Shown one piece after another: positions 21,658-60,938 of a DNA stretch of 64,000 nt. This DNA comes from Candidatus Xenobia bacterium (GTDB lineage: Bacteria > Vulcanimicrobiota > Xenobia > Xenobiales > QWHO01): NCBI GenBank assembly GCA_045863235.1, contig BTUM01000004.1, positions 88,621-152,620 on the forward strand. The letters are read 5' to 3'. A model generated the notes under the pieces. It did no database searches. It was given only the letters and a program-made list of their open reading frames with translations, and was not told where the DNA came from. The stretch's first letter is position 1; every line of letters begins with the position of its first letter. Both the position numbers and the translations under genes were made by a program.

Positions 21658-21667
21658 AGAGGCCTCC

Positions 21668-23619: not shown

Positions 23620-23634
23620 CGCAAGGGAACCTGA

Positions 23635-27192: not shown

Positions 27193-27525
27193 TCAGTCAG
27201 CCAGGATCTTCTGCAACTCCCAGCGATCCAGCCACATGCCCCGGCAGGTGGGGCACACATCCACCTGGGTGGAGCGCCATTCCCACTCCTTCATGACGAC
27301 GTGGCAGCGTGGGCACTTGCGCTGGCCGGGGGGAACCGTCTTGCGCGAGTCATCGAAGGCCAGCGGTTGGAGAGCGTTCTTGGGCAGCGAGGCCAGAGTG
27401 ACCAGCAGCTCCGGCTCACCGTCGTCGAACCAGAGCCCGTCGCACAGCTCGCACTCGTCGAGTACCAGGTCGCCCAATCGAACCTCGCGCAGAGGCACCA
27501 GGCAGGTGGGGCACTCGATGTTCAT
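27193..27525 (-). CDS. Zinc-ribbon protein (TFIIB-type, COG3809-like), last gene of the flotillin operon
   Basis: MNIECPTCLVPL...CELCDGLWFD and a second ribbon CPRCHVVM...CPTCRGMW. Its start overlaps the stop of the giant ATPase gene (ATGA). Confidence 0.65.
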   Translation of the reverse strand: MNIECPTCLVPLREVRLGDLVLDECELCDGLWFDDGEPELLVTLASLPKNALQPLAFDDSRKTVPPGQRKCPRCHVVMKEWEWRSTQVDVCPTCRGMWLDRWELQKILAD

Positions 27526-33020: not shown

Positions 33021-33023
33021 CGA

Positions 33024-35198
33024 TCAGCCCTGAGGCGGGGCCGGACGGGGAGCGCGCGGCGCCACCGGGGCCGCCGGGGCGGCCGGAGGCAGAGCCTCCA
33101 TGCCCAGGCTGCGGGCCAGCTCCATCAGCTTGGCCTGGTCGGTGCCCCCGCTTTTCTTGATGAGCGAAGCCAGCAGCGAGGACACGCTCAGGTTCTTGAG
33201 GTCCTCCGAGCTCATCGAGGGGTTGGACAGGATGTCCTTGAGGTCCTTGGCCAGACTCCTCTCGCCGTTCATGTAGTCGCCCAGCATGGCCTTGGCGGCG
33301 TCAGAGTGCTGCATGAAGCGGTCCATGGACTTACTCATCGAGATGGCCCCGAAGATGCGGTCGAGCATGGCCCCGTCGCCGCCCACGATGTCGATCTTGG
33401 CCGACTTGAAGACCTCGGCCATGACCTTGGCCTGGGCCTCGGCCAGCTCTTTCTGGGTCTTGAGCGACTCCAGCGCGATGATGCGCTGGTTCTCGAGCTC
33501 GAGGCGATACTCTTCGTGGCGCCGCGAGACGTCGTCTAAGGCCTTCATGGCCTTGGCCTTCTCGGACAAACCGGCCGCCTCGGCCAGCAGCTTCTTCTGG
33601 ATGGCCTGGGCGTCGGCCTCGGCCCGGGCGGCGGCCACAGAGGCTTCGGCCATGCCCACTTTGTGGCGCGACTCAGCTTCGGCTTCGGCCTGGGCCTTCT
33701 TGATGGAGGCCTCCACCATTCCCAGCTTCTCGTTGGCCGGCGCCTGAGCTTCCTTGACGCGCACCTCGGCCATGCCCTGCTTCTCGAAGGCCAGGGTCTC
33801 GGCTTCCTGAACTTTGGCTTTGGCCAGGCCCTCGGCCGCTCTCTCAGCCTGAACGCCCTCCGACATGCGCACCTTGGCCTGGGCTTCCTTGTCGGCCGCA
33901 GCCAGCTCAGCCTCGGCCAGGGTCAGGCGCTGCTTGGCCGTAAGCCGGGCCACCGCCTCGGCCGCCTCGGCCTGCTTGATCTGCTGGGTGGCCTGCTCCT
34001 CGGCCCTGGCCTCGGCGGCGATCACGACCGAATCCTTGCTGCGCTTGGACTCTTCCTGCACGCGCAGGGTCTTGATGCGCTCTTCTTCCTCGACCACGTT
34101 CTTCTCCACCGCGATACGCTGGCGAATGACCTCCTGAATCTCCTTGCGCTCTTCCTCGAGGGCCTTCTCCTTGGCGATGCGCATCAGCTCGACCTCGCGC
34201 TCTTGCTCGATGGCCTTGAGGTTGATCTCCTTCTGGGCGATCTGCTTCTCGAGGTTGACCACGCGCTGGCGATTGGCGTTGGCCACCTCGATCTCGCGGT
34301 GCTTGTTCTCCTCCATCACCTGGATCTCGCGTTCGGCCTCGATGCGAGCGGCCTCGGCCTTCTTGCGCTCCTCGGCCTGGATTTTGGCGATCTCTGCCTC
34401 GCCCCGGGCGCGAGCCGACTCGACCTCCAGGGTCTGGCGGGTCTGGGCGTCGGCCTGCAGGCGATCCTGCTCCATGATGATGGCGTTGGCCTCGACGTCC
34501 TGGGTCTTGATGCGCTTTTTCTCCTCGTTGAGCAGGTAGTTGGTCTGCACGCGCTGCTCGTGGGTGATCTCGGTGATCTTGCGAATACCCTCGGCGTCCA
34601 TGATGTTGGTCTCATCGAGCGCCGTCAGGGGCGTTTGCTCGAGGTAATCGATGGCCACGTCCTCGAGCACGTAGCCGTTCAGGTCCTCGCCGATGACACC
34701 GCGCACCATGTCGCGAAACTCGGTGCGGCGGGTGTAGAGCTCGGCGAAGTCGTGGCTCTTGCCTGCCGTCTTGAGGGCCTCGGAGAACTTGGCCTCGAAC
34801 AGGTCCTCCAGGGTGCGCGGGTCGGAGGCCCGGGCGCAACCGAGAGACTGGGCCACTTCGAGCACGTCCTCCACGGTCTTGTTGACGCGCACGAAGAACA
34901 TCACGCGGATGTCGGCCCGGATGTTGTCTTTGCAGATCAGGCCCTCTTTACCGCGGCGATCGATGTCGATGGTCTTGACCGAGATATCCATCATCTCTGC
35001 CTTATCGAACAGCGGCATCACCCGGGCGCCGGTAAAGACCACCTGCGGGTCCTTCTGGCCCTTGCGGTTGATGATCAGCGCTTTGCCCTGCTCCACCCGA
35101 ATGTAGAAGCGGGCCTCGGCCAGCGTCCACACCAGCCACAGAAAGAGCAGCGAGCCCACCAGGCCGCCCCCGATGATGAGCATGGTGATCAGTTCCAC
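33024..35198 (-). CDS. Flotillin (SPFH/band-7 domain plus long flotillin helical repeats)
   Basis: N-terminal TM segment MELITMLIIGGGLVGSLLFLWLVW. The SPFH core is ...RVMPLFDKAEMMDISVKTIDI.... An extended EA-repeat coiled coil follows (AEERKKAEAARIEAEREIQ...). Confidence 0.9.
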   Translation of the reverse strand: MELITMLIIGGGLVGSLLFLWLVWTLAEARFYIRVEQGKALIINRKGQKDPQVVFTGARVMPLFDKAEMMDISVKTIDIDRRGKEGLICKDNIRADIRVMFFVRVNKTVEDVLEVAQSLGCARASDPRTLEDLFEAKFSEALKTAGKSHDFAELYTRRTEFRDMVRGVIGEDLNGYVLEDVAIDYLEQTPLTALDETNIMDAEGIRKITEITHEQRVQTNYLLNEEKKRIKTQDVEANAIIMEQDRLQADAQTRQTLEVESARARGEAEIAKIQAEERKKAEAARIEAEREIQVMEENKHREIEVANANRQRVVNLEKQIAQKEINLKAIEQEREVELMRIAKEKALEEERKEIQEVIRQRIAVEKNVVEEEERIKTLRVQEESKRSKDSVVIAAEARAEEQATQQIKQAEAAEAVARLTAKQRLTLAEAELAAADKEAQAKVRMSEGVQAERAAEGLAKAKVQEAETLAFEKQGMAEVRVKEAQAPANEKLGMVEASIKKAQAEAEAESRHKVGMAEASVAAARAEADAQAIQKKLLAEAAGLSEKAKAMKALDDVSRRHEEYRLELENQRIIALESLKTQKELAEAQAKVMAEVFKSAKIDIVGGDGAMLDRIFGAISMSKSMDRFMQHSDAAKAMLGDYMNGERSLAKDLKDILSNPSMSSEDLKNLSVSSLLASLIKKSGGTDQAKLMELARSLGMEALPPAAPAAPVAPRAPRPAPPQG

Positions 35199-35258
35199 GT
35201 CCCCGAACCTCCCTTACCGTCTCGACAAGCATGGATCGCTTCGCGCCACCGCGAAGCC

Positions 35259-47541: not shown

Positions 47542-49395
47542 ATGCAGCTGCGAGAGAGAGCAAGGTGCGGCTATCCCGATGCGATGGCAGCCCTGGCCGA
47601 GGCCGGGGAGGACCTGAGCTTTCTTTCTGCCGAGCAGCGGGCCTATGGCTGGTGCCACACGTTCCACCCACGGTTGGCCGAGGAGCTGGTCGTGTGCCGG
47701 GCGACCCCGCACTGCCTGGTCGTGAGCTCGCTGAAGCTGGGTCAGCCCCTCGAGCTCGACTCTCGGCTCGCTCCTTCCTTCCTGGAGGCCAGCGCCTGCC
47801 CCGATCCAGAGGTCTCGGCCCGGGCCCTGGAGGCCCTGAAAGCCACCGACCTGGTCGACCTCCTGTGCGACTACGCGCTGTCGAGGGACTGCTCGCCGGC
47901 CGCCAGGGAGGTCTGGGTGGCTTTGGGCTTGCTTCCCAGCGCCCCCCATCGGCGCCAGATCTACCTGATCAGGATGGGAAGGACGGACCTTGCCGAGGAG
48001 CTCGATCCGCAGGGCGAGCACCTGACGCTGGGAGCCCTGGAGCTACGCCCCTCCTGGCGCCTGGCTCTGGCGGCCCATTTGCGCGAGCGCGGCCGGGGCC
48101 ACCTGGTACCCCGCATGCTGGGCATCGTCCGCGAGAGAGTGCAACTCGACGGGCCCATGCTGGCCGAGATGCTACGCCAGGCCCAGTTCGAGGCACTGTG
48201 GACTCTGTGCCCCTTCCTGTCTGCCGAGCGCGCCCGGGAGGTCATCCTGGGACTGGCCGAGAGGGGCTTCGCGGGGGGGGCTGACTTCGCGCAAGCCGTG
48301 GACCTGGCCCGGGTCGAGCCGATCCGGCGGCCTGTCTATCGCACGCGCGGGAAATGGGTGGGCTGGGGCGGGCGCCGCCTGCTGGTCAGCCGCAATCGGA
48401 GCGTGAGAGCCATCGATTGGGAGGAGGATCGCGTCGCCTGGCAGGTGGGAGGGAGTTGTCAGGGTGCGGTGCTCTCGCCGGACGGCAGGTGGGCCGCTCT
48501 TTCGCGCCAGCGGCACTACCATCTGCACGATCACGAGGGCCGAATGGTACACGCGAATCGAGCCGTGATGCCCAGTTTCTCGCCCTGCTCGAATTACTTC
48601 GCTTTTCGCGAGGGGCGCTGGCAGCTCTGGCGCCTCTCCCCGCTCGAGCTGCTCGAGTCATCCCAAAACTGCAAGTTCGAGTGGCTGGAGCCAGGCCAGG
48701 TGATCGTCAGCGAGGTGGGAGGACTGCGCATCCGCGATCTGGCCAGCGGGACCACCCGCCTGGAGCCGCCCCTGGCCAGTGAGCCGAACACCTCCAAGTG
48801 GAGGAGGTCTGCCCGGGGCGCGCGCTGGGTGGCCCGCCGAAACCCGCTGATGGCGTTGAGCACGGGCACCCCCGAAAGCCTGATCGTGGAATCGGACGGA
48901 AGCTGCCAGGTCGTGCCGAGCAGGGTCGTGCTGCTCGACGACGAGCGCGTGCTGTGCACCAAAGACTGGAAGATCTGGGACGGTCGCATGCTGCGGCCGC
49001 TCCCCAGGCCAGAGGCGGCTTCGTTTCAGATCGATCCCCGGGGGGCGCGACTCGTGACCGAGAAGGAAGGCTTCACCGCGCTGGTGCGCCTGGGCGACCG
49101 CCTGCCCTACCGAGAGCTGCCCGGCACTTTTCTCGCGATCCATCCCACCGAGCCTTACCTGGCAACTTTGCTTGAGGGAGAGATCTGCATCTGGCAGGTG
49201 CCCCACGAGGTCGACCTGGGTCCTGCGCTGCTCGAGGACAACGCCGAGCGACTCGAGCAACACCTGCGCCCACTGGCCCTCTTTCTCTTGCACCGACGAT
49301 TCCGCCACGAGGTGGCGCTGGAAGAGGGTCTGGAGCTCTCCCCAGCGCACGAAATCCAACTCGACGACGATGAGGCTCGCGTTTATGGAGGGTAA
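47542..49395 (+). CDS. Hypothetical protein with probable beta-propeller (WD40/PQQ-like) C-terminal region
   Basis: First in-frame ATG (MQLRERARCGYPDAMAALAEAG...) of track ORF 46435..49395. The upstream part of that ORF is antisense to mutS2. The C-terminal half has repeated W/G/S beta-strand-like segments (...VAWQVGGSCQGAVLSPDGRWAAL...). Confidence 0.5.
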   Translation: MQLRERARCGYPDAMAALAEAGEDLSFLSAEQRAYGWCHTFHPRLAEELVVCRATPHCLVVSSLKLGQPLELDSRLAPSFLEASACPDPEVSARALEALKATDLVDLLCDYALSRDCSPAAREVWVALGLLPSAPHRRQIYLIRMGRTDLAEELDPQGEHLTLGALELRPSWRLALAAHLRERGRGHLVPRMLGIVRERVQLDGPMLAEMLRQAQFEALWTLCPFLSAERAREVILGLAERGFAGGADFAQAVDLARVEPIRRPVYRTRGKWVGWGGRRLLVSRNRSVRAIDWEEDRVAWQVGGSCQGAVLSPDGRWAALSRQRHYHLHDHEGRMVHANRAVMPSFSPCSNYFAFREGRWQLWRLSPLELLESSQNCKFEWLEPGQVIVSEVGGLRIRDLASGTTRLEPPLASEPNTSKWRRSARGARWVARRNPLMALSTGTPESLIVESDGSCQVVPSRVVLLDDERVLCTKDWKIWDGRMLRPLPRPEAASFQIDPRGARLVTEKEGFTALVRLGDRLPYRELPGTFLAIHPTEPYLATLLEGEICIWQVPHEVDLGPALLEDNAERLEQHLRPLALFLLHRRFRHEVALEEGLELSPAHEIQLDDDEARVYGG

Positions 49396-49421: not shown

Positions 49422-52049
49422 TCAGGTCTGAGGATCAGCGACCTGGCCACCCTGAAGGCGCCGGTCGATCACGTGCCGCAGCTTGCCGCTGCGCGGGTTG
49501 CGCTCCAGCTCTCCCGGACTGACGACCTCTACCACCAGTTCGGCCAGCAAGCCCTGCTCGAGCCGCTCACCGAGCACAGGCAGGCGCTCGAGCAGCCTTT
49601 CTCGTACCCTCTCACTGGAGGCCGGGCCTTCCACCCGCACCCGCAGCCGATCGAGCAGGTCCCGCTTCTCGGCTACCAGTTGCACGGCGCCCGCCAGGCC
49701 GACCAGAGCTTCGGCCACGTCTTGCCAGGAAGTGTTGGTGCTGGCCAGGCAGAGCAGGTCGTCAGAGCGGCCAAGCAGCTCGAAGCGAGGAGTGGTCCGA
49801 CCGCAGGGGCAGGGCTCTTGCAGCCAGCGGGCTCGATCCCCCAATCGATAGCGAATCAGCGGCATCAACCGGCGCTGCAGGCAGGTGATCACGACCTCTC
49901 CCTCCGGGGCCGGTCTGCCTTGCGCGTCCAGTAGCTCCATCCACACCTGGTCGCTGGCCAGGTGGTGCACCGAGCCCGGGCAATGGGCGCACTGGTAGCC
50001 GATGGGTCCGCCGTCGTTGGCGCCCAGAATCGAGCCCAGCCGGGTCAATCCGAAGCGTTCGCGCAAGAGCTTCTGCTCGCCCGGGGGCAGGGGCTCGCCC
50101 CCGTAGACCACCGTCTTGATGGGGGGGCGAGCCTGGCGCTCGTGGAGGTCGGAGAACAGGCGGGTGAGCTGAGACGAGACCCCCAGCACCACCCCCACTT
50201 CGAAGCGCTCGAAGTGCAGCATCAGGCTCTCGAGGGGGGCCGAGGCGGTGAAGGGGAGGTTGACCACGCCGGCTTCCTCCAGCACTCGGTGGATGCTCAG
50301 GAAACTGCCGTAGAGGTCGCCCGAGAGGAAGAGGTTGGCGCAGCGGTCCCCCGGGCGAACGCCCAGGGCGCGCAGCATCTTGACGCCGGCCAGGACGTCG
50401 GCGCGATAGTCCTCCGGGCTCAAGAAGCAGTACTTGGGGTCGCCGGTGGAGCCGCCGCTGCGCAGCACCACGGCGTCCTTGAGAGGCGCGGTCAAGAGCT
50501 CGGCGGACTGAAGGTGCAGCACCGAGCGCTCCAGCAACGGCTGGCCCTGGAAGTCCTCCGGGAGGCAGACCGGGGTAAGGCGCTCGCGGTAGTAGGGCGA
50601 GCGAGCGCGCACGAACTCGATCAGGTCGAGCAGCCGCTCCCAGCTGATGGCCTCGGCCTCGGCGGCGGGGCGGGTCTCCCAGTCGTGGCTGATGCCCTCG
50701 GGGGCGTCGGCGGTCAAACTCACCCAGCGCACCAGGGGTTGCAGGCCGAGACGGCCGTCGTGGGGCTCGCCGGGCTGCCCCCCTGCCATCTCGCCGAGGC
50801 GGCAGATGCGGGTGGCTCCCGCCGCGGTCAGCAGCCGGCCCAGGTGGCGCGAGCGATAGAGCCCGGCCTCCAGGCCCACGGTCTGAAGGAAGCTGCGCCA
50901 GGGCTCGAGCAGAACCGGCAGCTCGCGCTCGGGTTGCTCCACCGTCTTGATGATCAGCGTGCGGTGCAAGGGCGAGGAGCGAAGCTCGCTCTCGTCGCTC
51001 TCGTAGATCAACGTCCAGGCCAGGGGACGCCTGGAGGTCAGCAGTCGCACCGGTCGCACGGCCTGGTCAAAAAGAGCCATCTGGCGCTCCTTGGTGACCT
51101 CGATGGCGGTATCGAAGGCGGGCTCGGCAGACGGCAGCTCGGCCTCCACCTCCTCCAGCGCCCGGGCCAGCGGCTCGAGCAGCCGCTCGGCGTTCTCGGC
51201 TCCCTCCACGTAGAGCACCTGGGGCGAGGAGCAGGCGTGTTGATCCCACATCGACACGTCGCGGGCCAGGCGGCCCGCCAGCTCGGGCAGATCCTGCCAG
51301 CCCGGGGCGTCGGCGGTGAGCACGGCCAGCGACAGCTTGGGCCCGTAATCCACCACCTCCACGTGGGGATCGACCCCCTGATGGTAGCGGCGCACGGCCT
51401 CCTCGCCCCCGGTGATGACGATGGCGTCACAGCCTGCTTTGAAGAGCGACTCCAGGCTCTCGTCGCCTCCCGACCAGGAGAGCACGGCGGTGGAGCGGGT
51501 CAGCTCGCCATCCTCTTCGAAGGCGGCCAGGCTCTCCACGAAGAGCCGGGCAAACAGCGGGTCACCGCTGGAGGCCTTCAGCAGAGTCACGTTGCCGGTC
51601 AGCAGAGACTCGGCCAGGAGGATGGCGGCGCCCACGAAGACATTGCCCGAGGCCACCGTCAGCACCACCCCGCGGGGACGAGCCCGCAGGTACTCCCCGA
51701 TGCTCTTGCGCGGAGTCCAACGATCGAGCAGGTCAGCCGGCCCCAACTCGCGCTCGATGCGCATCTCCAGGACGTCGCGTCGCAGGGCGTTCCCCATCAT
51801 CGTGAGGGATTGCGCCACCATGGGCCGGGACATGCCCACCAGGTCGGGGATCTCTTGCTCAGCCCGGCGTCGGGGGGGGAACTCGGGGTCGACCCAGGCA
51901 GCTCCGGCCCGATCCAGAATGCGCATGATGCGCCGCACCGAGATGCGCTCGTAGCTCAGGGTGCGCTCGCGAGCCCGGCCCAGCACCTCACGGACCCGCT
52001 CGGCGGTGAGCGGGCCGCTCCAGGTCTCCCCCAGCACGAAGTGGCTCAT
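49422..52049 (-). CDS. Fusion protein: LuxC-type acyl-CoA reductase (N-terminal) + PaaK/F390-synthetase-like adenylate-forming enzyme (C-terminal)
   Basis: ATG at M58 of the track ORF, overlapping the luxE-like stop (ATGA). The N-terminal half matches LuxC hallmarks (VVLTVASGNVFVGAAILLAESLLTGNVTLLKASSGDPLF ... AGCDAIVITGGEEAV; cf. LuxC HLLAGNVPLSG...IKTSSTDPF...DVIVAWGG). The C-terminal half has ...VVLRSGGSTGDPKYCF... and the CPCGR motif, paralogous to 58537..59814. Confidence 0.7.
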   Translation of the reverse strand: MSHFVLGETWSGPLTAERVREVLGRARERTLSYERISVRRIMRILDRAGAAWVDPEFPPRRRAEQEIPDLVGMSRPMVAQSLTMMGNALRRDVLEMRIERELGPADLLDRWTPRKSIGEYLRARPRGVVLTVASGNVFVGAAILLAESLLTGNVTLLKASSGDPLFARLFVESLAAFEEDGELTRSTAVLSWSGGDESLESLFKAGCDAIVITGGEEAVRRYHQGVDPHVEVVDYGPKLSLAVLTADAPGWQDLPELAGRLARDVSMWDQHACSSPQVLYVEGAENAERLLEPLARALEEVEAELPSAEPAFDTAIEVTKERQMALFDQAVRPVRLLTSRRPLAWTLIYESDESELRSSPLHRTLIIKTVEQPERELPVLLEPWRSFLQTVGLEAGLYRSRHLGRLLTAAGATRICRLGEMAGGQPGEPHDGRLGLQPLVRWVSLTADAPEGISHDWETRPAAEAEAISWERLLDLIEFVRARSPYYRERLTPVCLPEDFQGQPLLERSVLHLQSAELLTAPLKDAVVLRSGGSTGDPKYCFLSPEDYRADVLAGVKMLRALGVRPGDRCANLFLSGDLYGSFLSIHRVLEEAGVVNLPFTASAPLESLMLHFERFEVGVVLGVSSQLTRLFSDLHERQARPPIKTVVYGGEPLPPGEQKLLRERFGLTRLGSILGANDGGPIGYQCAHCPGSVHHLASDQVWMELLDAQGRPAPEGEVVITCLQRRLMPLIRYRLGDRARWLQEPCPCGRTTPRFELLGRSDDLLCLASTNTSWQDVAEALVGLAGAVQLVAEKRDLLDRLRVRVEGPASSERVRERLLERLPVLGERLEQGLLAELVVEVVSPGELERNPRSGKLRHVIDRRLQGGQVADPQT

Positions 52050-53131
52050 TCCAGCAGCCTCGCGGCCGCAATGGCGCAGCCGGCGTGCTTGCGCGTGCCG
52101 CCCCGGCCCAGAAAGCGAAGCGCAGGGGCCTGACGCCCGCACGGGCAACCCTCCTCCAGGGCCGCCAGGTCGCTGGTCAGCAGGCTGAGGTTGGGCACAC
52201 TGGTCAGAAACGGGGTGCACAGCTGCAACAGACCTGGCTCACCCGGAGCGAGCGGCCGAAGATCGAGGGGATGACGGATCAGCGCCCGGCAGAACACCGG
52301 AACATGGAAGCGGTGGGCCGGGCACTCGACGTAGGGGGCGCCGTGCTCGACCATGCCATAGTTGTCGCGCTGGCGCTCGGGGGGCACAGCCAGCTTCTGG
52401 CTGACCAGCTGGAGAAACTCCTCGCGAGGGATGGCCTGCTCGGCCTGGCCCTTCCAGCCCCCGCCGGTCAGCACCCAGCTGCCCTCAGCCAGCCTGACCG
52501 GGGCGTGCAGCCGCGTCATCAGACGGTGCAAGAAGGAGGGGAAGCCCACGATGCGCGTGGGGAACGGGCTTTGAGCCAGCCGCACCAGAGCCTCGAGCGC
52601 CCCTTCCTCGTCGAAGAAGAACCCCTCCGGGCCCTTTTGAAGGGCGTAGAACACCTCGGCCTGGCGGGTGAAACGGGTCCAGTTGGAGGAGCTGAAGGCC
52701 GCCCCCGAATCGGGAGCTTCAGCCGGGTCGTAGGAGAAAAGCAGCGAGTTGGTTGTCTCGTCGGGGGCCACCAGCCCCTGGTCGGCAAAGACCGTCTCGA
52801 GCATGGCCTGGGCCCGATCGAGCGAAGCCTGGTCGAAGAAAGTCTGGCTCTTTTGCCCCGAGGTCCCACTGGAGCGAACGTGCAGCACGACCTGGCTCTT
52901 CTCCACGCTGAGGAGCTCGTAGCGCTTGAACACGTTGACGAAGACGAAGGGGGCATCCTCCAGGCGCCCCAGGCGCTGAAAGCCCTGCTGCTCGCAAAAC
53001 CGGCCGAACTCGGGGCAGGAGCGGCGGTGGTGGGCAAACGCCTCCTGCATGGCCTCGTGAAAGAGCAGCTCGCGCTCATCGTCGAGGTCATAAGGGCGAT
53101 CAAGGCGACAGAGGCGGTCGATAGCTTGCAT
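52046..53131 (-). CDS. LuxE-like acyl-protein synthetase
   Basis: 361 aa. Adenylation motif VRSSGTSGQKSQTFF and a LuxE-type architecture. It lies immediately upstream of, and translationally coupled to, the LuxC fusion. Confidence 0.65.
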   Translation of the reverse strand: MQAIDRLCRLDRPYDLDDERELLFHEAMQEAFAHHRRSCPEFGRFCEQQGFQRLGRLEDAPFVFVNVFKRYELLSVEKSQVVLHVRSSGTSGQKSQTFFDQASLDRAQAMLETVFADQGLVAPDETTNSLLFSYDPAEAPDSGAAFSSSNWTRFTRQAEVFYALQKGPEGFFFDEEGALEALVRLAQSPFPTRIVGFPSFLHRLMTRLHAPVRLAEGSWVLTGGGWKGQAEQAIPREEFLQLVSQKLAVPPERQRDNYGMVEHGAPYVECPAHRFHVPVFCRALIRHPLDLRPLAPGEPGLLQLCTPFLTSVPNLSLLTSDLAALEEGCPCGRQAPALRFLGRGGTRKHAGCAIAAARLLE

Positions 53132-53264
53132 CCTGGAGGGCCCCGTTTCTCACCGGCGGCGGCCGGCCCTGCTCTGCGCACTGATATCCTTCTGTCCATA
53201 CTGCGGCAACAATCCTGGGACCAGCCGCGCGTAAACTCAGGGCGGTGCGCAAACAGGAGACCTC

Positions 53265-54827
53265 ATGCTCACGGCAGTCCAGCCCGCTTGCGGGCACAGC
53301 ATAAAACATCGCTACTTCAGCCAGGACCCCCTGACCGAGCAGCTCATGACGACCAGCATGCCTGCCGATGGCGTGTCGCTTGGCCCTGAGAACGCTCGCT
53401 TGAAGGTCGACGACCCCGGTCAGCCGGTGGCTGCCCCGGACGAGAACGGCAACATGCTCTATGTGCCGACCGACCCTCGCTTTGCCCAGGTGCAGACCTT
53501 CGTGGCCGCCGACCGCTCGCTTCGCTTCTTCGAGCGCCACCTGCAGCGCAAGCTCGACTGGGCTTTCGGGCGCGAGCAGATGCTGATCCACCCCCACGCC
53601 GGCAACACCATCAACGCCTTCTACAACCGTCAGGAAGGCTCCATCAACTTCTACACCTTCAACGCCCAGGAGCTGGGCAAGACCATCAACTCCGGACACT
53701 CGGCCGAGATCGTCGCCCACGAGTCGGGCCACGCGCTGCTCGACGGGGTGCGGCCCGAATGGATCAACTGCCTGGAGGACGCCACGGGGGGATTCCACGA
53801 GGCTTTCGGCGACATCCTGGCCTTCCTGGTGGCCCTGGAGGAGCCGCGCAACCTCGACAAGGTGCTGGCCGAGACCGGGGGCGACCTCAAGCGCCCTAAC
53901 TCGGTGGCCCGACTGGCCGAGGAGGTTTCCCGGGCCCTGTGGGACGAGCTCGACATGGAGCGCCCCCACCACGACTACCTGCGCAATGCCAACAACGCGC
54001 TGGTGAACGCTGACCCCACCACCCTGCCCCCCGATCCGCCCAACGAGAGCGAGCTCGGCCGGGCCGTGCACAACTACTCGCGGGTGATGACCGGAGCGGC
54101 TTGGGACGTACTCGATTCGTTCCACCGCCAGTATCAGGCCCAGGGGTTCGGCGTGCGCCAGAGCCTGGAGAAGGCCCGCGAGACGGTGGGAGCGCTGGTC
54201 ATCCGCAGCCTGGACTTCTGCCCGGTGGGTCACTTGCCGTCGTACGGCGACTTCGCCCGGGCTCTGCTCGAGGTGGATCGGCGCGACTTCGACGGCCAGC
54301 ACCGCGAGATGCTCACCAATCTGATGCAGGCCCGCAACATCCACCCGCCGGAGCAGCAACCGGTGCCCGCGCTGACTCTGCCCGAGGACGGCACGACGCC
54401 GTTTGGAGCCCAGCGTTTCCTGGAGCTGCACAGAGACGAGCTGGGCATCGCTCCCGAGGTGCCTCTGACCTTCGAGCGTTCCTACGCCAATGAGCTGGGC
54501 GAGCGGTTCGTCCTCTATCGCTACGATCGCAACGTGGCCGTGCGAGAGGACCTGAGCGCGGTGGCCCAGGGTGGGCTGTTGCTGGTCTTCGATGGGGACG
54601 GGAGCTTGAGCTACCGGCACTTCAACGAGCTGACCCCGGCCGCCGAGGGGCGCCTTCGCGAGGCGGCTCTGTCCCAGCTAGCGGCCGGGCAGATCCGCAC
54701 CGACAGCGTGCTCTCGGGCGAGGTGGACCTGTCTGGCATGCTGCAAGAGGACGGTCAGCCCTACCAGGGCTACCTGTCGGTGGAGCCGCAGGGCACAGTC
54801 ATCAAGGCCAGCCCGGTTCGCGCCTGA
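53265..54827 (+). CDS. Putative zinc metalloprotease (HExxH)
   Basis: 520 aa. The zinc-binding motif is EIVAHESGHALLDG, with a downstream EAFGDILAF as a possible third ligand. Balanced composition, unlike the antisense ORF 53100..54620. No obvious signal peptide. The start could be at MTTSM. Confidence 0.6.
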   Translation: MLTAVQPACGHSIKHRYFSQDPLTEQLMTTSMPADGVSLGPENARLKVDDPGQPVAAPDENGNMLYVPTDPRFAQVQTFVAADRSLRFFERHLQRKLDWAFGREQMLIHPHAGNTINAFYNRQEGSINFYTFNAQELGKTINSGHSAEIVAHESGHALLDGVRPEWINCLEDATGGFHEAFGDILAFLVALEEPRNLDKVLAETGGDLKRPNSVARLAEEVSRALWDELDMERPHHDYLRNANNALVNADPTTLPPDPPNESELGRAVHNYSRVMTGAAWDVLDSFHRQYQAQGFGVRQSLEKARETVGALVIRSLDFCPVGHLPSYGDFARALLEVDRRDFDGQHREMLTNLMQARNIHPPEQQPVPALTLPEDGTTPFGAQRFLELHRDELGIAPEVPLTFERSYANELGERFVLYRYDRNVAVREDLSAVAQGGLLLVFDGDGSLSYRHFNELTPAAEGRLREAALSQLAAGQIRTDSVLSGEVDLSGMLQEDGQPYQGYLSVEPQGTVIKASPVRA

Positions 54828-56019
54828 CCCCGGGCACCTGTTCGCGTGACAGGAGGCCATAGCCCAGTGCAGCCACGCCCAGCGTGGCGCAGCCCAGCCC
54901 CAGCAGCATGGCGCGGGGGCCGACCAGGCCCACCAGGGGAGAGGCCAGCGTCACCCCGAGCGGTGCCGCCAGGCCCACCATGGCGAACAGGCTGGAGAAG
55001 ACGCGACCGTGCATCTGCGGGGGAGTCGTGCGCTGCACCAGGGTGATCACCACGGCGTTGCCGGGCGCGACCCCGAAGCCCGCCAGCGCAGCCAGCAGCA
55101 CGCTCACGGGCAGGTTGGGGGCAACCGACATCAGGGCGAAGGCCGCTCCCAGGAGGCCCATGCCGGCGTAGATCACAGTGGCCGGTCGCAGCCGGCGAGC
55201 CAGGGGAGCGGCGGCCAGAGAGCCCAGCACCATGCCGGCGCCCACTCCGCCCATGAGCCAGCCGAAGCCCTGCGGGCCGGCCCTCAACGCGCGCTCGGAG
55301 AAGACAGGGAAGAGCACCGCAAAGGGCATGGCCAGGAAATTCCCCGCCATGGCGGTCAGAAAGACCAGCCTCAAGAAGCGGCTGCGCAAGAGGTAGCTCA
55401 GTCCCTCGCGGGCCTCGGCCAACAGCTTTCGAAGCGTCAGGGGAGAGGTAGCTCCCGGCTCGGGCCGCCCGCGCATGAAGGCCAGAGCCAGGGCCGAGAC
55501 GACGAAGGAGGCGGCGTCGATGTAGAGGACGTGTACGGGGCTGCTCAACCAGGCCACCAGCAGTCCGGCCAGCACCGGCCCGAACAGGGAAGCCGCCTGG
55601 GCGGTCATCTCGGCGTAGGCGTTGGCCTCGGTCAGGTCGTCCTCCTCCACCAGCCGGGGGATGAGCGATTTCTCGGCCGAGTAGAACATCAGGCTGAGGC
55701 TGGAGACCAGGAAGGTCACGGGAAAGATGATCCAGGTCTGAGCGGTCAGGGGGATGAGCAGCACGAGCAGCCCGCGCAGCAGGTCCACTGCGATCATCAA
55801 GGCCCGGCGCGGGAAGCGGTCGACCACCACTCCGGCCCACCACCCGAAGAGCGCGTTGGGAAGGATCTGGGCCAGGAAGACTCCCCCGGTAAGAGTGGTG
55901 GAGCCGGTGGTGGTCAGCACCAGCCAGGCCAGAGCCACGTAGTTGAGCTGGTTGCCGAGCTGGGAGACCAGCTGGCCGATCCACAAAAGACCGAAATCGC
56001 GCCGCCGCAGCAGGATCAT
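54802..56019 (-). CDS. MFS transporter (EntS/DHA-like exporter)
   Basis: 405 aa with 12 predicted TM segments, including ...VVDRFPRRALMIAVDLLRG.... Its start overlaps the stop of the upstream gene (ATGA). Confidence 0.8.
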   Translation of the reverse strand: MILLRRRDFGLLWIGQLVSQLGNQLNYVALAWLVLTTTGSTTLTGGVFLAQILPNALFGWWAGVVVDRFPRRALMIAVDLLRGLLVLLIPLTAQTWIIFPVTFLVSSLSLMFYSAEKSLIPRLVEEDDLTEANAYAEMTAQAASLFGPVLAGLLVAWLSSPVHVLYIDAASFVVSALALAFMRGRPEPGATSPLTLRKLLAEAREGLSYLLRSRFLRLVFLTAMAGNFLAMPFAVLFPVFSERALRAGPQGFGWLMGGVGAGMVLGSLAAAPLARRLRPATVIYAGMGLLGAAFALMSVAPNLPVSVLLAALAGFGVAPGNAVVITLVQRTTPPQMHGRVFSSLFAMVGLAAPLGVTLASPLVGLVGPRAMLLGLGCATLGVAALGYGLLSREQVPGVRREPGWP

Positions 56020-57146
56020 GGCGAGTGACGGGCGGCGGTGGCGATGAGCTCGGGCCAGCGCGAGAGCAGCTCGAGATGGCGCGCAGCGCCCTCATCCACG
56101 GCCGCCAGGCAGTCCTCTTTCTCCGACTCGATACGGGCCGCCAGGTCGCGCTCGGGGTAGAGCCGGGACAAGAAGGCCGCGAATCGCTCTTGCAGCTCGA
56201 GACGGGGGGCGCGGTCCTCTGCCCGGGGCGCGCTGCCAACCAGGCGGGCCAGCTCCTCGGGACCTTGTGGGCGCTCCTGGCGCACAGCCTGGAACACAGG
56301 CGCGTAGAGGGCGTTGTAGTCGATGGCCCGGGCCAGGCGCCACCAGTAGACGCTGTCGTCGCGGCCAGGGGGATGGCGGTGCTCGAGCACGCGTCCGTGG
56401 GCCCCCAGCGCCCAGCCGGCGCCCAGGGCCAGGGCCACGGGAAGGTTGTCCACGTCGGGGGTCTCCTCGGCCGGGGCCACCGGGAGGTGGCGAAACAGTC
56501 CCCGGTCGGTGCAAAGCCCGGGGTAAACGCTCTGGCCGGGAGCCACCCGAGCCCAGTCCTCCATGCGCGCGGGAGGTGGATGCTTGAGCGCTGCCTTGAC
56601 GGCCGGGTCGGCGAAATCAAGCTCCAGGCCCAGCAAGCGGCCGAGCTCGGCCATCAGCTCGCTCCCCCCGGTCCGATAGATGCGGTCTACATCGCAATCA
56701 CAGTCGCCAAAGTGGACCGTGCCGGCCAGATAGGGAGCCTCGGGACCGGTCAGCAAGGCGACCTCTCGCTCCACCGGGAACCACCAGCCACCCTCGGCCC
56801 GAGCCACCAGCAGCTCGTCGGCATCGCGCCGGCTGAGAGTGGTGGCTCCCAGAGCCGCCCCCACCAGGGCCACCAGGTTGGCCACCTTGCCGTAGTTGGC
56901 CACGGGCCCGGGCTGCAGGCTGGCCGAAAGCGACCCGCCCACCGCCAGGCAGAAATCGAGCAGCCAGGGCAGGGTCAGATGGCGGGCTCGAGGCAGTTCC
57001 CCCACCCGGGCCGCGTTGGGCTCCGGATCGGGGCTGCTGTCGAGCAGCACGAAGGTCAGCTCGGGAAAAGCCTCAAGCTCGGCCGACAGGGGCTCGAGCG
57101 GGCTCTCCCAGGCCCGGTTGGTGGGCACCACCAGAATGTGGCTCAT
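56016..57146 (-). CDS. Hypothetical protein (376 aa)
   Basis: ATG at 57144-57146 (MSHILVVPTNRAWESPLEPL...). The track ORF extends upstream as an Arg/Gly/Pro-rich artefact. It overlaps its neighbours by 4 nt at both ends. No recognisable domain. Confidence 0.5.
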   Translation of the reverse strand: MSHILVVPTNRAWESPLEPLSAELEAFPELTFVLLDSSPDPEPNAARVGELPRARHLTLPWLLDFCLAVGGSLSASLQPGPVANYGKVANLVALVGAALGATTLSRRDADELLVARAEGGWWFPVEREVALLTGPEAPYLAGTVHFGDCDCDVDRIYRTGGSELMAELGRLLGLELDFADPAVKAALKHPPPARMEDWARVAPGQSVYPGLCTDRGLFRHLPVAPAEETPDVDNLPVALALGAGWALGAHGRVLEHRHPPGRDDSVYWWRLARAIDYNALYAPVFQAVRQERPQGPEELARLVGSAPRAEDRAPRLELQERFAAFLSRLYPERDLAARIESEKEDCLAAVDEGAARHLELLSRWPELIATAARHSP

Positions 57147-58540
57147 CCTCGCCGATCCTCCAGCACGAAATCGAGCAGCTCCTGGCCCCAGGGAGAGGCG
57201 ACCTGAATCAGATCGGCTCTCACAGGCTCTCCCAGTCGCTGCATCCGCAAGAGATCCCCCTGGCCGCCCAGCCCCGGGAAGAAGCCGCAGTATCCGAACC
57301 CTCGCTCGCGCAAGAGGTCGATCACCGTGTCGGTGTGGGGGTCGGCCAGCTCCAGGTCGACGAGTTGCACGGGAGCCTGAATCTCGTTGAGGCAGCGCCC
57401 CAGCTCGCGCGGGGTGTTGCGGCCCACCCGCTCGACGTGGAACAGAGCCCGGCGTGAGGCGGCCTGCAACCCCCAGGTCAGGGCTCCCTGGAGTGGAGGC
57501 CGGTTGGAGGCAGGCTCGTGCAGGCGACGCTGCAGGCCCAGCTTCTCCATGGTGCGGGTCAAAATGGCGGCGTAGCCTGGTGGAAGGTGCAGCCGGCTCT
57601 CCTTCTCGGGCGTCAGCGAGCGCACCGCGATCATCAGGCTGCTGGGCTCGGGATGGGTCTCCTCGGGCCCTACCGCCCCCAGCATCAGCGCGCTCTCGCA
57701 AAAGCCAAGATCGAGCACCACCTTCTGGGCGAAGAGGTGGCTGGTCACCGGATCGGCATAGAGCTTTCGCAACTGCCGCAGCCTGGCTTGCTCCACCAGG
57801 AAGCTGACCAGCTGGCGCAAGAGGCCCTGACCTCGGTAACGGGGCACCACCGCTCCCTGGCCCATTTCGTAGATGGGGCGATCGTCGAGCATGCGGACCA
57901 GGGCGGTATGGCCCACCACCTCCCCCGAGTCGGTCACGGCCACGGCCGAGATCAAGCGGCCCTGGCGGTTCATCTCGCGCACCCACTCGGGGCGGTAGAC
58001 GTTCTCATAGCCGGTATAGCTGTAACCATAGGCCTGGTAGAGACAGCGCGAGACTCCCACCGCCTCTTCGGGCTGCACCAGCCGCACGGTGACCGGCTCG
58101 AGTGGCTCCTCGGAGACTTTCTCTTGCTTGCGCACCCGGCTGCTGAAGCGAGCCTTGAGTCGCTTCACCAGGACGATCTCGTTGCCCTGACGACCCCGGT
58201 TGATGAGCCGCACCTCGTCCATCAGGGCCCGCATGATGACCAGCCCCAGCGTGCGCGGATCGGGTCCCGGCTCGAGGCGCGAAAGCTCGTCCGAGTCCAC
58301 CGGCAGATTGCGGTCGGTCAGGCGAATGCTGAGTCCATGCCCCCCCAGCTCGAACTTGATGGTGAAGGTCTGCTCGGGGTCGAGAGCGCGCTGCACCACG
58401 AAAGAGCATGCCTCGTCCACGGCCGCCCGGATGGCCTGGCTCTCGGCCGCGGCAAAGCCCGAGCGCTCGGCGAGCTCGGCTGCGAAGGCGGCTGCGGCGC
58501 CCACGTAGAGGGGATGGGAAGGAAGCTCGAGGCGGCTCAC
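57143..58540 (-). CDS. Two-domain protein: anti-sigma-factor-like histidine-kinase-type ATPase (RsbW-like) + GNAT acetyltransferase
   Basis: GTG start overlapping the PaaK-like stop (GTGA). The N-terminus shows an HATPase_c-like pattern (...CSFVVQRALDPEQTFTIKFELGGHGLSIRLTDRN...GLVIMRALMDEVRL). The C-terminus has the GNAT motif A (VVPRYRGQGLLRQLVSFLVEQAR). Confidence 0.5.
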   Translation of the reverse strand: MSRLELPSHPLYVGAAAAFAAELAERSGFAAAESQAIRAAVDEACSFVVQRALDPEQTFTIKFELGGHGLSIRLTDRNLPVDSDELSRLEPGPDPRTLGLVIMRALMDEVRLINRGRQGNEIVLVKRLKARFSSRVRKQEKVSEEPLEPVTVRLVQPEEAVGVSRCLYQAYGYSYTGYENVYRPEWVREMNRQGRLISAVAVTDSGEVVGHTALVRMLDDRPIYEMGQGAVVPRYRGQGLLRQLVSFLVEQARLRQLRKLYADPVTSHLFAQKVVLDLGFCESALMLGAVGPEETHPEPSSLMIAVRSLTPEKESRLHLPPGYAAILTRTMEKLGLQRRLHEPASNRPPLQGALTWGLQAASRRALFHVERVGRNTPRELGRCLNEIQAPVQLVDLELADPHTDTVIDLLRERGFGYCGFFPGLGGQGDLLRMQRLGEPVRADLIQVASPWGQELLDFVLEDRRG

Positions 58541-59814
58541 AGGCTCTCGTCTCGCACCCGGCGCAGCTTGCCGCTGTGAGCCCGACGCTCGAGCCGATCC
58601 ACGCGCTCCACCCGGACCGGGTGGGTATAGCCCTGGCGCACGTGCTCGGCCAGGTTGGGCTTGCGCTGCAAGAGCAAGGCCACCACCTGCTCTTCGCTCA
58701 CGGGCTGCTCCACCTGGATCAAGAGCAGATCCCGGCCCTCAGGGCGGCGCTTGATCATCGTGAAGCTGGCCACACCTCCCAGGGCCATCCGCACGTCTTC
58801 CCAGGTCACATTCTCGTAGCCGATGCGCAGCACGTCGTCGCCCCGCCCGAGCAGCTCGAATCGAGGCGAGGCCCGACCGCAGGGGCAGTCCCCGGCCACC
58901 CAGCGTCCCAGATCGCCTACCCGGTATCGAATGACCGGCATCAGCAACCGCTCGAGGTTGGTGACCACCAGGTGCCCGGTCACTCCCGGCTCGCGAATGG
59001 GCCGGTCCTCCTCGTCCACCAGCTCCACGATCACCACCCCACCCAGCGCGTGGTGCACCCCCCCCTGGCACGAGGGGCACTGATAGCCGATCATCCCCAC
59101 GTCCACGGCTCCGTAGCCGGCCGTGGCCACCACCTCCAGGCCCAGCCCATCCACCAGCTTCCGGCGATCTTCCGGGAAGAGGTGCTCGGCGGCATAAAAG
59201 AGCTTGTTGACGCGGGTTCGGCCGCTGGCCATCAAGGCCTCTCCCAGGGCCACCATCTGGGTGGCCAGGCCCATCACCACGTTGATGGAGAAGGGCTCGA
59301 GGCAGGCCAGCACCTGCTCACGGGGGGCGTGAAAGGTGAAGGGGAACGAGGTCGCTCCCACCTCCTCCAGACCGCGATGGATGGTCAAGAAACTGGCGTA
59401 GAGCTCGCCCACGGCGAACATGTTGGCGCAGCGGTCCTGGGGACGAAGCCCCGGAGCCCACAGCGTGCGGCCGGTACTGCGCGACAAACGCCGATAGTCG
59501 GCGTGGCTGTAAAGGCTGTACTTCGGTTTGCCGGTGGTGCCCCCGCTCTGGAAGACAACCGCGCGCTCCAGGGGACCGGTCAGCAGGGCTCGAGAGCGGG
59601 GCGGGCCGTGCTCCACCAGGTCCTGGCGGGTGAGGAAGGGCAGCTCCTCCAGGCGACCACTGAGGCGCTCGCGAAAGAAGCTCGCCCGCCGGGCTCGCTG
59701 CAAGAGCTGCCGAAGTCGCGCGGACTCCAGTGCCCCGAGCTGGTCAGCCGAAAGGCCATCCAGCTGATCGAAAGGATGCTCGACCCGGGAAGACATAGCC
59801 CGTAGCATACTCAC
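58537..59814 (-). CDS. Phenylacetate-CoA ligase (PaaK)/F390 synthetase-like adenylate-forming enzyme
   Basis: 425 aa. VVFQSGGTTGKPKYSLYS (P-loop-like AMP motif), ...YGAVDVGMIGYQCPSCQGGVHH... and CPCGRASPRFELLGRGDDV. It is clearly paralogous to the C-terminal half of 49422..52049. Confidence 0.75.
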   Translation of the reverse strand: MSMLRAMSSRVEHPFDQLDGLSADQLGALESARLRQLLQRARRASFFRERLSGRLEELPFLTRQDLVEHGPPRSRALLTGPLERAVVFQSGGTTGKPKYSLYSHADYRRLSRSTGRTLWAPGLRPQDRCANMFAVGELYASFLTIHRGLEEVGATSFPFTFHAPREQVLACLEPFSINVVMGLATQMVALGEALMASGRTRVNKLFYAAEHLFPEDRRKLVDGLGLEVVATAGYGAVDVGMIGYQCPSCQGGVHHALGGVVIVELVDEEDRPIREPGVTGHLVVTNLERLLMPVIRYRVGDLGRWVAGDCPCGRASPRFELLGRGDDVLRIGYENVTWEDVRMALGGVASFTMIKRRPEGRDLLLIQVEQPVSEEQVVALLLQRKPNLAEHVRQGYTHPVRVERVDRLERRAHSGKLRRVRDESL

Positions 59815-59918
59815 ATTCGGCCCTCTGGTCTATGATCGAGGACAGGGAGGGCCATGCAAAGATCTTGCTAAACTGCGCCGAGTACCTTTGGGGCATCCAC
59901 TTCGCTCTGGAGGACCCC

Positions 59919-60938
59919 ATGCAGATCCCGCCCATCGAAACCCGGTGCAACCCGCTGGTCTGTTTCTTGCCCGCTCCGATCCTGGGGCAGCCGTCCTCTG
60001 GAACCATTGCGGGGGACTTGAACGTGCTCAGCCCCGACGTCCTCCAGATGGGCAGCTTCCTCAACGCTCCCGGTGCCCTCCAGCCCGAGCCCCAGATGGG
60101 CGGTTTCCTCAACGCCCTGGCGGCCAACTATGCCCCTCCCCAGGCGCAGGTCATGGCCCTGATACAGGGATTGCTGGCCCTGTGCCAGCTCCTGGCTGGC
60201 TGGCAGGGCTTTGCCGGCGGAGCAACCCCGCCCGGGATCCTCCCATGGCCAACCGGAATGGGCAACGCATGGCCAACCGGGACGGCCAATGGCAACGTCA
60301 GCGCTGGGATCGTGCCGGTGCTTCCCTACGACGGACAGCCCACCGGCGGCGGCATGGACCCCGAGCGCATCCATATGACCCAGGTCTTCGACCGCAAATA
60401 CAATCGTGGGGGCGCTCCTCGCAGCGCCGACTGCGGCCCGACCTCGCTGGCCATGGGGCTGGAAGCTCTGGGCTTGAATCCGCGCGGTTCGGTGCAAGAC
60501 AAGATCGATGCTGCACGCCTGGCAATGTTTCGCGGGGCGGACGCCTCCAGGGACGGATTCGACGTGGCCGGCAACAAGAGCCAGGCTGAGCACGGAACCT
60601 CCACCAACATCAGCGACTGGCGCCGAGGCGCACGCGCCGCCGGAGCCCGCAGCCGGGACGTGCGCAGCGTGGCCGACGTGGCCCGCGAGGTAAGTCAGGG
60701 GCACCCGGTCATGCTGGCCGGTCGCAACGCGGGTAACATTTATGGCCGCGGACACGGGATCTCCTTCAACGGGGGCCACGCCATCCTGGTATCCGGCTAC
60801 GACCGGGCCAGCGGCACGTTCATCCTCAACGATCCGCTCGCCCACGGGGGGCCCATCCGCGTCAATCGGGCCCAGCTGGCAGCTTTCCTCTGGGATGGTG
60901 ACGGGGGAGGCGTGGACGGGATTGCCCTGATGCGCTGA
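59919..60938 (+). CDS. Peptidase C39-like (papain-fold) domain protein with Gly/Pro-rich N-terminal region
   Basis: ATG at 59919 with SD ggagga. The C-terminal domain has the catalytic Cys in RSADCGPTSLAMGLEALG and the His in NGGHAILVSGYD. No ABC-transporter domain is attached. Confidence 0.55.
   Translation: MQIPPIETRCNPLVCFLPAPILGQPSSGTIAGDLNVLSPDVLQMGSFLNAPGALQPEPQMGGFLNALAANYAPPQAQVMALIQGLLALCQLLAGWQGFAGGATPPGILPWPTGMGNAWPTGTANGNVSAGIVPVLPYDGQPTGGGMDPERIHMTQVFDRKYNRGGAPRSADCGPTSLAMGLEALGLNPRGSVQDKIDAARLAMFRGADASRDGFDVAGNKSQAEHGTSTNISDWRRGARAAGARSRDVRSVADVAREVSQGHPVMLAGRNAGNIYGRGHGISFNGGHAILVSGYDRASGTFILNDPLAHGGPIRVNRAQLAAFLWDGDGGGVDGIALMR

Follow-up and report, generated by a model that had tools for sequence, protein, structure and literature searches.

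Leupeptin and other peptide aldehydes potently inhibit proteases, and they also give rise to pyrazinone signals. The primary biochemical study of leupABCD, in Klebsiella michiganensis/oxytoca, Photorhabdus, and Xenorhabdus, is reportedly that of Li et al. in 2020 (Angew Chem 59:17872). Here, these genes are compared with a gene cluster in a 64,000-nucleotide stretch of contig BTUM01000004.1 from Candidatus Xenobia bacterium (hereafter the window, with a G+C content of about 67%), in which a LuxE-like gene is coupled to a gene for a LuxC domain fused to a PaaK-type adenylate-forming domain (49422..53131). In the NCBI taxonomy, Xenobia is placed within the phylum Vulcanimicrobiota.

In its described form, the leup operon encodes a major facilitator superfamily (MFS) protein, a LuxE/PaaK-family protein, an acyl-CoA reductase, a PaaK-family ligase, and a GNAT protein (bioRxiv 10.64898/2026.08.25.747093). 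The leupABCD genes extend over about 5.8 kb and have a transporter next to them, and the primers leupA_f and leupB_r amplify 1,235 bp of the cluster (PMC8283571). Its products are leupeptin, a lysine analogue, and derived pyrazinones that act as signals; leupeptin itself is cleaved and then converted to a Leu-Arg pyrazinone signal (PMC11480411). This route, which does not use a nonribosomal peptide synthetase (NRPS), has been described for a few gammaproteobacterial pathogens, and the operon has been called narrowly distributed (PMC11480411).

The cluster in the window is a distant new member of this known pathway type, and neither a novel fusion nor a fatty-acid reductase. The pair at 49422..53131 is probably its leupA/leupB-type core, and the rest of what would be a carrier-protein-free peptide-aldehyde pathway with discrete ligases lies on the same strand at 54802..59814. 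Judging from the encoded families, the most likely product would be an exported N-acyl tripeptide aldehyde, that is, a protease inhibitor similar to leupeptin. The comparison with leup was suggested by the gene content, since three adenylating units, a thioester reductase, an N-acyltransferase, and an exporter fit the carrier-free synthesis of such a compound.

Both genes of the core are on the minus strand. The LuxE-type gene, a leupA homologue, is at 52046..53131 (361 amino acids, aa), and the LuxC::PaaK fusion gene, a leupB homologue, is at 49422..52049 (875 aa). The ATG of the fusion (52049..52047) overlaps the TGA of the LuxE-type gene (52048..52046) by four bases, in the context ggaATGAgcc. 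Direct reading of the open reading frames (ORFs) gave exactly the coordinates, frames, and ATGA overlap that had been reported in a preliminary description of this locus, and both genes are called alike in an independent assembly (Logan DRR491769), with a LuxE-type protein of 361 aa and a fusion of 875 aa. A frameshift artefact as the origin of the fusion was ruled out by the continuous ORF, by the same call in the independent assembly, and by the fused state of all the relatives counted below.

The domain assignments of the preliminary description, LuxE, LuxC, and PaaK-type, are all backed by searches with hidden Markov models. The 361-aa protein matches Pfam LuxE (PF04443) with an E value of 3e-30. 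It contains an SSGTSGQKS motif at aa 87, a GGGWK loop with Lys227 (codon 52451..52453), and a C-terminal TRKHAGCAIA with Cys352 (codon 52076..52078). The GGGWK loop and the cysteine of the C-terminal G-C-A-I are conserved in at least 95% of 75 homologues, LeupA included, and Lys227 and Cys352 are the counterparts of Lys238 and Cys364 in Photobacterium phosphoreum LuxE (PMC9157457). In the LuxC-LuxE complex studied by cryo-electron microscopy, LuxE adenylates the acid via Lys238 of the GGGWK loop and Arg355, and Cys364, which is in a flexible C-terminal TRxxKGCxLS motif, takes the acyl group; this is then passed to Cys296 of LuxC, and NADPH releases the aldehyde (PMC9157457). The relationship between the LuxE-type protein and either PaaK-type unit of the window is only remote.

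The fusion begins with a LuxC-type thioester reductase domain (aa 35-442, 50724..51947, minus strand; Pfam PF05893, E 4e-85), in which the AGNV-type, LLKASSGDP, and DAIVITGG motifs that had first pointed to LuxC are present. Its Cys273, located in DQHACSSPQ (codon 51231..51233), aligns with the catalytic cysteine of the LuxC in PDB 7xc6 (DQQACFSTQ; Cys296 according to PMC9157457) and is invariant in an alignment of 21 diverse homologues. The PaaK-type adenylate-forming domain follows at aa 456-864 (49458..50684, minus strand) and is recognized by NCBIfam PaaK/DVU_1553-type ligase models; Pfam AMP-binding (PF00501, aa 526-718) and AMP-binding_C_2 (aa 784-864) also match, and the PaaK structures PDB 4r1l and 2y4o match with E values of 1e-22 to 1e-21. 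This domain has SGGSTGDPK at aa 531 and Lys856 (SGK) in its C-terminal subdomain. As had been proposed, it is paralogous to the free, LeupC-like ligase encoded at 58537..59814 (minus strand; 425 aa, or 419 aa as called in another assembly), with 41% identity (E 1e-91). Both units keep the SGG(S/T)TGxPK motif and the lysine of the C-terminal subdomain (SGK; Lys856 and Lys416), and neither has a cysteine tail.

The link to leup had to be drawn via the literature and a primer scan; a repeat of the protein search with the 21-sequence alignment returned nearly the same set as the first and no named Klebsiella or Photorhabdus protein. Metagenome contigs were scanned with primer leupB_r, which yielded eight loci, including the one taken here as the Klebsiella leup reference (L088). 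On this contig, leupA_f matches exactly at 2925 and leupB_r at 4140-4159, and the span of 1,235 bp is the published amplicon size. The reference encodes an MFS protein (419 aa, Pfam MFS_1), LeupA (378 aa, Pfam LuxE), LeupB (803 aa, with LuxC at aa 42-413, E 1e-111, and then AMP-binding at aa 465-664), LeupC (446 aa, a PaaK-like ligase), and LeupD (305 aa, GNAT). In BLASTP comparisons with these Klebsiella proteins, the LuxE-like protein is 35% identical to LeupA over its full length (E 3e-78), the fusion is 30% identical to LeupB over 791 aa that include both domains (E 4e-65), the free ligase is 32% identical to LeupC (E 7e-46), and the GNAT segment of the window's acyltransferase (aa 150-286) is 30% identical to LeupD (E 8e-15).

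The likeness is also one of organization. Both clusters have the same five functions (LuxE-like protein, LuxC::PaaK fusion, free PaaK-like ligase, GNAT, and MFS) and the same count of three adenylating units, one reductase, and one GNAT; in both, the leupA- and leupB-type genes adjoin and are coupled. The fusion, which the preliminary description considered unusual, has the identical two-domain architecture of LeupB and belongs to a large conserved family.

The distribution of this family was studied by a scan of one genome per species, in which at least 225 relatives were found. Neighbourhoods were counted in the best 80 loci, which come from more than 10 phyla; many of these loci end at contig ends, and the neighbourhood counts are thus lower bounds. 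In all of them (80/80), a single reading frame encodes the LuxC domain and then the PaaK domain, and of the 66 loci with room upstream, 63 have a LuxE-like gene immediately before the fusion. A second PaaK-like ligase is present in 62/80 loci, a homologue of the window's HATPase_c_2-GNAT protein in 46/80 (in 42 of these 46 with the N-terminal domain), and a flanking MFS gene in 37/80. The commonest form seen in the related loci would be that with an RsbW domain, perhaps of a pseudokinase type, on the N-acyltransferase. Protein searches gave a consistent picture: the first returned 44 full-length fused homologues of 34-96% identity, and a HMMER search of 1.84 billion representatives returned 530 proteins with E values up to 1e-30, the best 150 of which (representatives of clusters at 50% identity) are nearly all 800-900 aa long and match end to end. 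The relatives are labelled as Sericytochromatia, Xenobia, Eremiobacterota/Vulcanimicrobiota, Elusimicrobia, Bacteroidales, Geobacter and its relatives, Bdellovibrionota, Riflebacteria, Acidobacteria, and Chloroflexota. Cultured carriers of the fusion are Rhodopseudomonas palustris JSC-3b (L029) and Marichromatium gracile DSM 203 (L050).

In the window, the minus-strand genes run, from high to low coordinates, as free ligase, HATPase_c_2-GNAT, a 376-aa gene, and MFS, and then LuxE-like gene and fusion, with a plus-strand gene for an HExxH protein (53265..54827) dividing the cluster into two halves. These halves are one conserved gene set split by the HExxH gene, as the same set occurs in the annotated loci and in the counts from the 80 loci. 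For instance, the order in L002 and L003 is a protein of about 390 aa, ligase, LuxE, fusion, and MFS (the first of these has a weak GNAT match in L002 and no Pfam match on record in L003), and that in L005 is HATPase_c_2-GNAT, MFS, a 453-aa protein, ligase, LuxE, and fusion. The closest genome locus, L008, with 96% identity, from a metagenome-assembled genome (MAG) labelled Eremiobacteraeota, is syntenic with the window. Three other MAG contigs that are 86-95% identical to the window locus (L006, L007, and L043) are labelled "uncultured Burkholderiales", a label that probably reflects mistaken binning or taxonomy in the source records.

The 453-aa gene has no Pfam match and occurs in 26 loci, for instance at 6218-7579 in L005, 6082-7488 in L029, and 6149-7555 in L050. 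A profile made from it retrieves PaaK-type ligases, which identifies it as a fourth, divergent member of the adenylating superfamily; no fourth adenylating ligase was found in the window. Clusters with this ligase may make a peptide that is one residue longer. The idea that the number of ligases would track the length of the peptide chain finds support in these 26 loci.

Some relatives of the fusion carry further parts. One of 1,244 aa (P0035) has Clp_N (PF02861) and YgbB/IspF (PF02542) matches beside LuxC and AMP-binding, and another of 1,276 aa (P0108) has a 400-aa N-terminal extension. Single LuxE::LuxC polypeptides of about 820-850 aa also exist (P0045-P0048 and P0050), for example in a Verrucomicrobia MAG, and these share just 27-30% identity with the fusion's LuxC half.

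A route from amino acids to a peptide aldehyde can be proposed for the window. The GNAT protein would draw on an acyl-CoA to N-acylate the first amino acid. The amide bonds would come from the two PaaK-type units, that is, the free ligase and the fusion's C-terminal half: each would convert a carboxylate to its acyl-AMP and join it to the amine of the amino acid that follows, and two such couplings would build an N-acyl tripeptide. The LuxE-like enzyme would then adenylate the C-terminal carboxylate and load the acyl group onto its flexible C-terminal Cys352, from where it would be handed to Cys273 of the LuxC domain; there, NAD(P)H would reduce the thioester to the aldehyde. Finally, the MFS protein would export the product. 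That the LuxE-like protein feeds the LuxC domain is suggested by their universal adjacency and translational coupling. From the families and their conserved residues, we infer the order of these steps, the pairing of each ligase with a bond, the amino acids, the acyl group, the cofactor, and the role of the product, whether in protease inhibition or as the source of a derived signal.

Several observations weigh against such a close parallel with leupeptin synthesis. The identity to the Leup proteins is just 30-35%, which leaves room for a product other than leupeptin (acetyl-Leu-Leu-argininal), or for one that is not a tripeptide at all. In Klebsiella, the genes are contiguous in the order MFS-leupA-B-C-D, whereas the order here is C-D-x-MFS, an opposite-strand gene, and A-B. 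The GNAT of the window has an RsbW-like N-terminal domain that Klebsiella LeupD does not have, and the operon contains an extra 376-aa gene of uncertain fold. The MFS proteins of the two clusters are barely similar (E 1e-3) and not orthologous. In addition, a tree of the adenylating paralogues, which the preliminary description had proposed, recovers by neighbour-joining a clean LuxE/LeupA clade but leaves the free and fused PaaK units unsorted, without separate LeupC and LeupB orthologue groups; consequently, no one-to-one orthology is claimed for LeupC. We also infer, rather than observe, which single enzyme takes which step. The hosts differ as well, being an uncultured Xenobia bacterium in one case and gammaproteobacterial pathogens in the other.

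Two further comparisons help to place the enzymes. PaaK and the PaaK-like amide- and ester-forming ligases (AjiA1, 6wuq; BagE/FevW) share the fold and motifs of both PaaK-type units of the window. Nevertheless, these units score far under the equivalog cut-offs (79-94 vs 646-700 bits; for the PaaK equivalog TIGR02155, 79 and 90 bits vs 646), and their acceptor would be the amine of an amino acid, not CoA. No paa catabolic genes were found near the cluster in domain scans and gene calls. The products of the NRPS peptide-aldehyde pathways of Streptomyces (leupeptin, livipeptin, and flavopeptin; PMC10548850) are small N-acyl peptide-aldehyde protease inhibitors, as would be expected here. By contrast with those pathways, which have terminal reductase domains, the cluster in the window has no condensation, thiolation, or short-chain dehydrogenase/reductase (SDR)-type R domains and instead has free-standing ligases and a reductase of the aldehyde dehydrogenase superfamily.

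A different fate for the aldehyde is raised by two putative peptidases that adjoin the cluster. The first is the HExxH gene at 53265..54827 (plus strand, 520 aa), whose product is metallopeptidase-like, with a gluzincin-like HESGH...HEAFGD; its family matches are weak, with Peptidase_M36 at E 0.006 and ACE-like matches around the zinc motif. The gene is divergent from the LuxE-like gene, shares its last 26 nt with the 3′ end of the MFS gene, and is present only in the window and in L008; its tie to the pathway is suggested by position. A minus-strand ORF in the same region (53100..54620) was rejected as an antisense artefact, as the HExxH ORF has coding-like composition and is called in the other assembly. 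The 133 bp between the HExxH and LuxE-like genes (53132..53264) form a divergent intergenic region that is the presumed promoter of the LuxE-fusion pair; no consensus sigma-70 site was found in it, and a promoter and terminator scan of 49-61 kb was uninformative. The second is a Peptidase_C39_2-like cysteine peptidase at 59832..60938 (plus strand, 368 aa, Pfam E 1.1e-11), divergent from the free ligase. A gene of this type is also beside the cluster in L008 (686-1849), L009 (4856-5977), L002 (5081-6250), and L027 (12679-13758); the loci that have it belong to Xenobia or are labelled Sericytochromatia/Cyanobacteria, and the other loci are without it. This placement hints that the peptidase might process the cluster product or be its target protease.

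With these genes in mind, the aldehyde could be an intermediate that is trimmed by the C39_2-like and HExxH peptidases and cyclised to a diffusible signal of the pyrazinone or dihydropyrazine type, much as the pyrazinone autoinducer of Klebsiella and Photorhabdus derives from leupeptin (PMC11480411). This possibility is consistent with the C39_2-like gene, which adjoins the cluster in five loci that represent at least two lineages, and with the divergent HExxH gene next to the LuxE gene. It is nevertheless rather unlikely, as the peptidases are lineage-specific and missing from most of the 80 loci, the HExxH protein has weak family matches, and the action of either peptidase on the product is putative.

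The preliminary description had instead framed the pair as a fatty-acid-reductase-like route to an aldehyde or an acyl-enzyme intermediate. Part of this holds, as an ATP- and NAD(P)H-driven conversion of a carboxylate to an aldehyde, for a specialised metabolite, is also what is predicted here. A Lux-type reductase that would supply a fatty aldehyde or alcohol, or an acyl-enzyme intermediate, for a lipid-derived metabolite is, however, improbable. Pfam LuxC and LuxE are indeed the top domain matches, and the LuxC of PDB 7xc6 is the nearest solved relative of the N-terminal half of the fusion. The locus shares with the LuxC-LuxE(-LuxD) system (7xc6; PMC9157457) its domain families, the conserved residues of the thioester relay (the adenylation-loop lysine and C-terminal swinging cysteine of LuxE, and the catalytic cysteine of LuxC), and a predicted chemistry that goes from acid to acyl-AMP, thioester, and aldehyde. 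Nevertheless, both proteins are far under the NCBIfam equivalog cut-offs, with 130 vs 750 bits for LCFA_red_LuxC and 101 vs 550 bits for LCFA_lig_LuxE, the LuxC domain shares its polypeptide with an additional ligase, and the substrate would be a peptide carboxylate, not myristate. In agreement with the preliminary description, no Bac_luciferase (LuxAB) or LuxD family was matched among about 45 window ORFs scanned, which were the large ORFs with coding-like G+C content at third codon positions and not every small ORF, and none was found in the gene calls of the independent assembly within about 10 kb. Across loci, the pair is accompanied by PaaK-type ligases, a GNAT, and an exporter. The fatty-acid framing is thus unsupported, both because of these scores and because the pair belongs to a conserved cluster that encodes two amide-type ligases along with a GNAT and an exporter and is gene-for-gene homologous to leupABCD; a peptide aldehyde is the product of the sole cluster of this architecture that has been characterised.

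The N-acyltransferase assigned to the peptide-aldehyde pathway is encoded at 57143..58540 (minus strand) and has two Pfam domains, an RsbW-like HATPase_c_2 domain (aa 7-126, 58163..58522, minus strand, E 2e-15) and a GNAT domain (aa 182-280, 57701..57997, minus strand; Acetyltransf_1, E 1.9e-9), of which the GNAT part is LeupD-like. The top PDB match of the HATPase_c_2 domain is RsbW (6m36, E 9e-7). In 44 homologues, the N-box asparagine of the kinases is not conserved in this domain and the G1 box reads D.GLP.D; the domain may be a pseudokinase, a scaffold, or a non-catalytic interaction domain. GNAT protein acetyltransferases regulate AMP-forming ligases by acetylating their A10 lysine. As this regulation is well established, and RsbW-like N-terminal domains are typical of protein-protein regulatory modules, the protein could be imagined as a Pat-type acetyltransferase acting on the catalytic lysine of the adenylating enzymes, in which case the product would have no N-acyl cap. 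This is very improbable: the GNAT segment is homologous to LeupD, whose operon yields an N-acetylated product, and its gene is translationally coupled within the biosynthetic operon.

The 376-aa accessory gene (56016..57146, minus strand) overlaps its neighbours by ATGA at both ends and encodes a protein of no firm family, with a weak DUF6271 match; no homologues were found outside Xenobia and close relatives labelled Eremiobacterota, and the protein is 100% identical to one recorded from Candidatus Xenobia bacterium (AMXMBFR33). In Foldseek searches with its AlphaFold model (pLDDT 64), the best PDB matches are GT-A glycosyltransferases, which are weak (E 0.016, TM 0.44), and the protein is possibly a GT-A-like transferase, a hint and not a finding. 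A role in cell-surface glycan or lipid modification, with the LuxE/LuxC reductase supplying an unusual acyl or aldehyde unit and the GT-A-like protein transferring a sugar, could draw on these weak structural matches and on the LuxE::LuxC fusions of different architecture (P0045-P0048), but is scarcely credible, as a single lineage has the 376-aa gene, the vicinity contains no further polysaccharide genes, and the partners that are conserved across loci are ligases, a GNAT, and an efflux-type MFS protein. The last is encoded at 54802..56019 (minus strand, 405 aa) and is an MFS_3/EntS-type exporter by its matches (Pfam MFS_1, 3e-34; MFS_3, 1.4e-27).

With the peptide-aldehyde pathway as the preferred reading, the breadth of leup-type relatives is the most useful by-product of the analysis. 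In the literature searched, no description of leup homologues outside Gammaproteobacteria was found, nor any paper that connects LuxC with peptide aldehydes. With a homologous cluster in Xenobia and its core in dozens of other lineages, there may be a broad reservoir of small protease inhibitors or signals that is yet to be mined. It can be tentatively proposed, as a possibility that is less than probable, that leup-type carrier-free synthesis of peptide aldehydes is a large, mostly uncultured, phylum-spanning family and not a narrow gammaproteobacterial trait, in which the count of discrete ligases (three here and in Klebsiella, four in 26 loci) would determine how long the chain is. In Xenobia, the same proposal would have the cluster work as an inhibitor/protease module for "making and breaking", with peptidases and a tailoring transferase, and make a new product. 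Rules tuned to NRPS or polyketide synthase genes may miss clusters of this type. There is also a trap for annotation, since the labels "LuxC", "LuxE", and "phenylacetate-CoA ligase" do not stand here for luminescence or for fatty-aldehyde or phenylacetate metabolism. The cultured R. palustris JSC-3b and M. gracile DSM 203 open the family to experiment.

On the other side of the pair, a 612-aa gene without Pfam match (47557..49395, plus strand) converges on the 3′ end of the fusion with a gap of 26 nt. It is not kept beside the cluster in L001, a relative with 86% identity, and is followed by a MutS2 gene on the minus strand. Farther away in the window, a gene at 27522..35213 (minus strand) encodes a 1,833-aa protein with DUF3686 ("ATPase involved in DNA repair", E 4e-191), DUF7902, and an AAA domain, and directly upstream of it is a 729-aa ORF without Pfam match; this region could be a defence or repair module. 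Additionally, a FabG-like SDR is encoded near a FabH-like KAS III at 20890..23634 (minus strand), and a Ser/Thr protein kinase with a C-terminal PEGA domain is encoded at 10126..12006 (plus strand).

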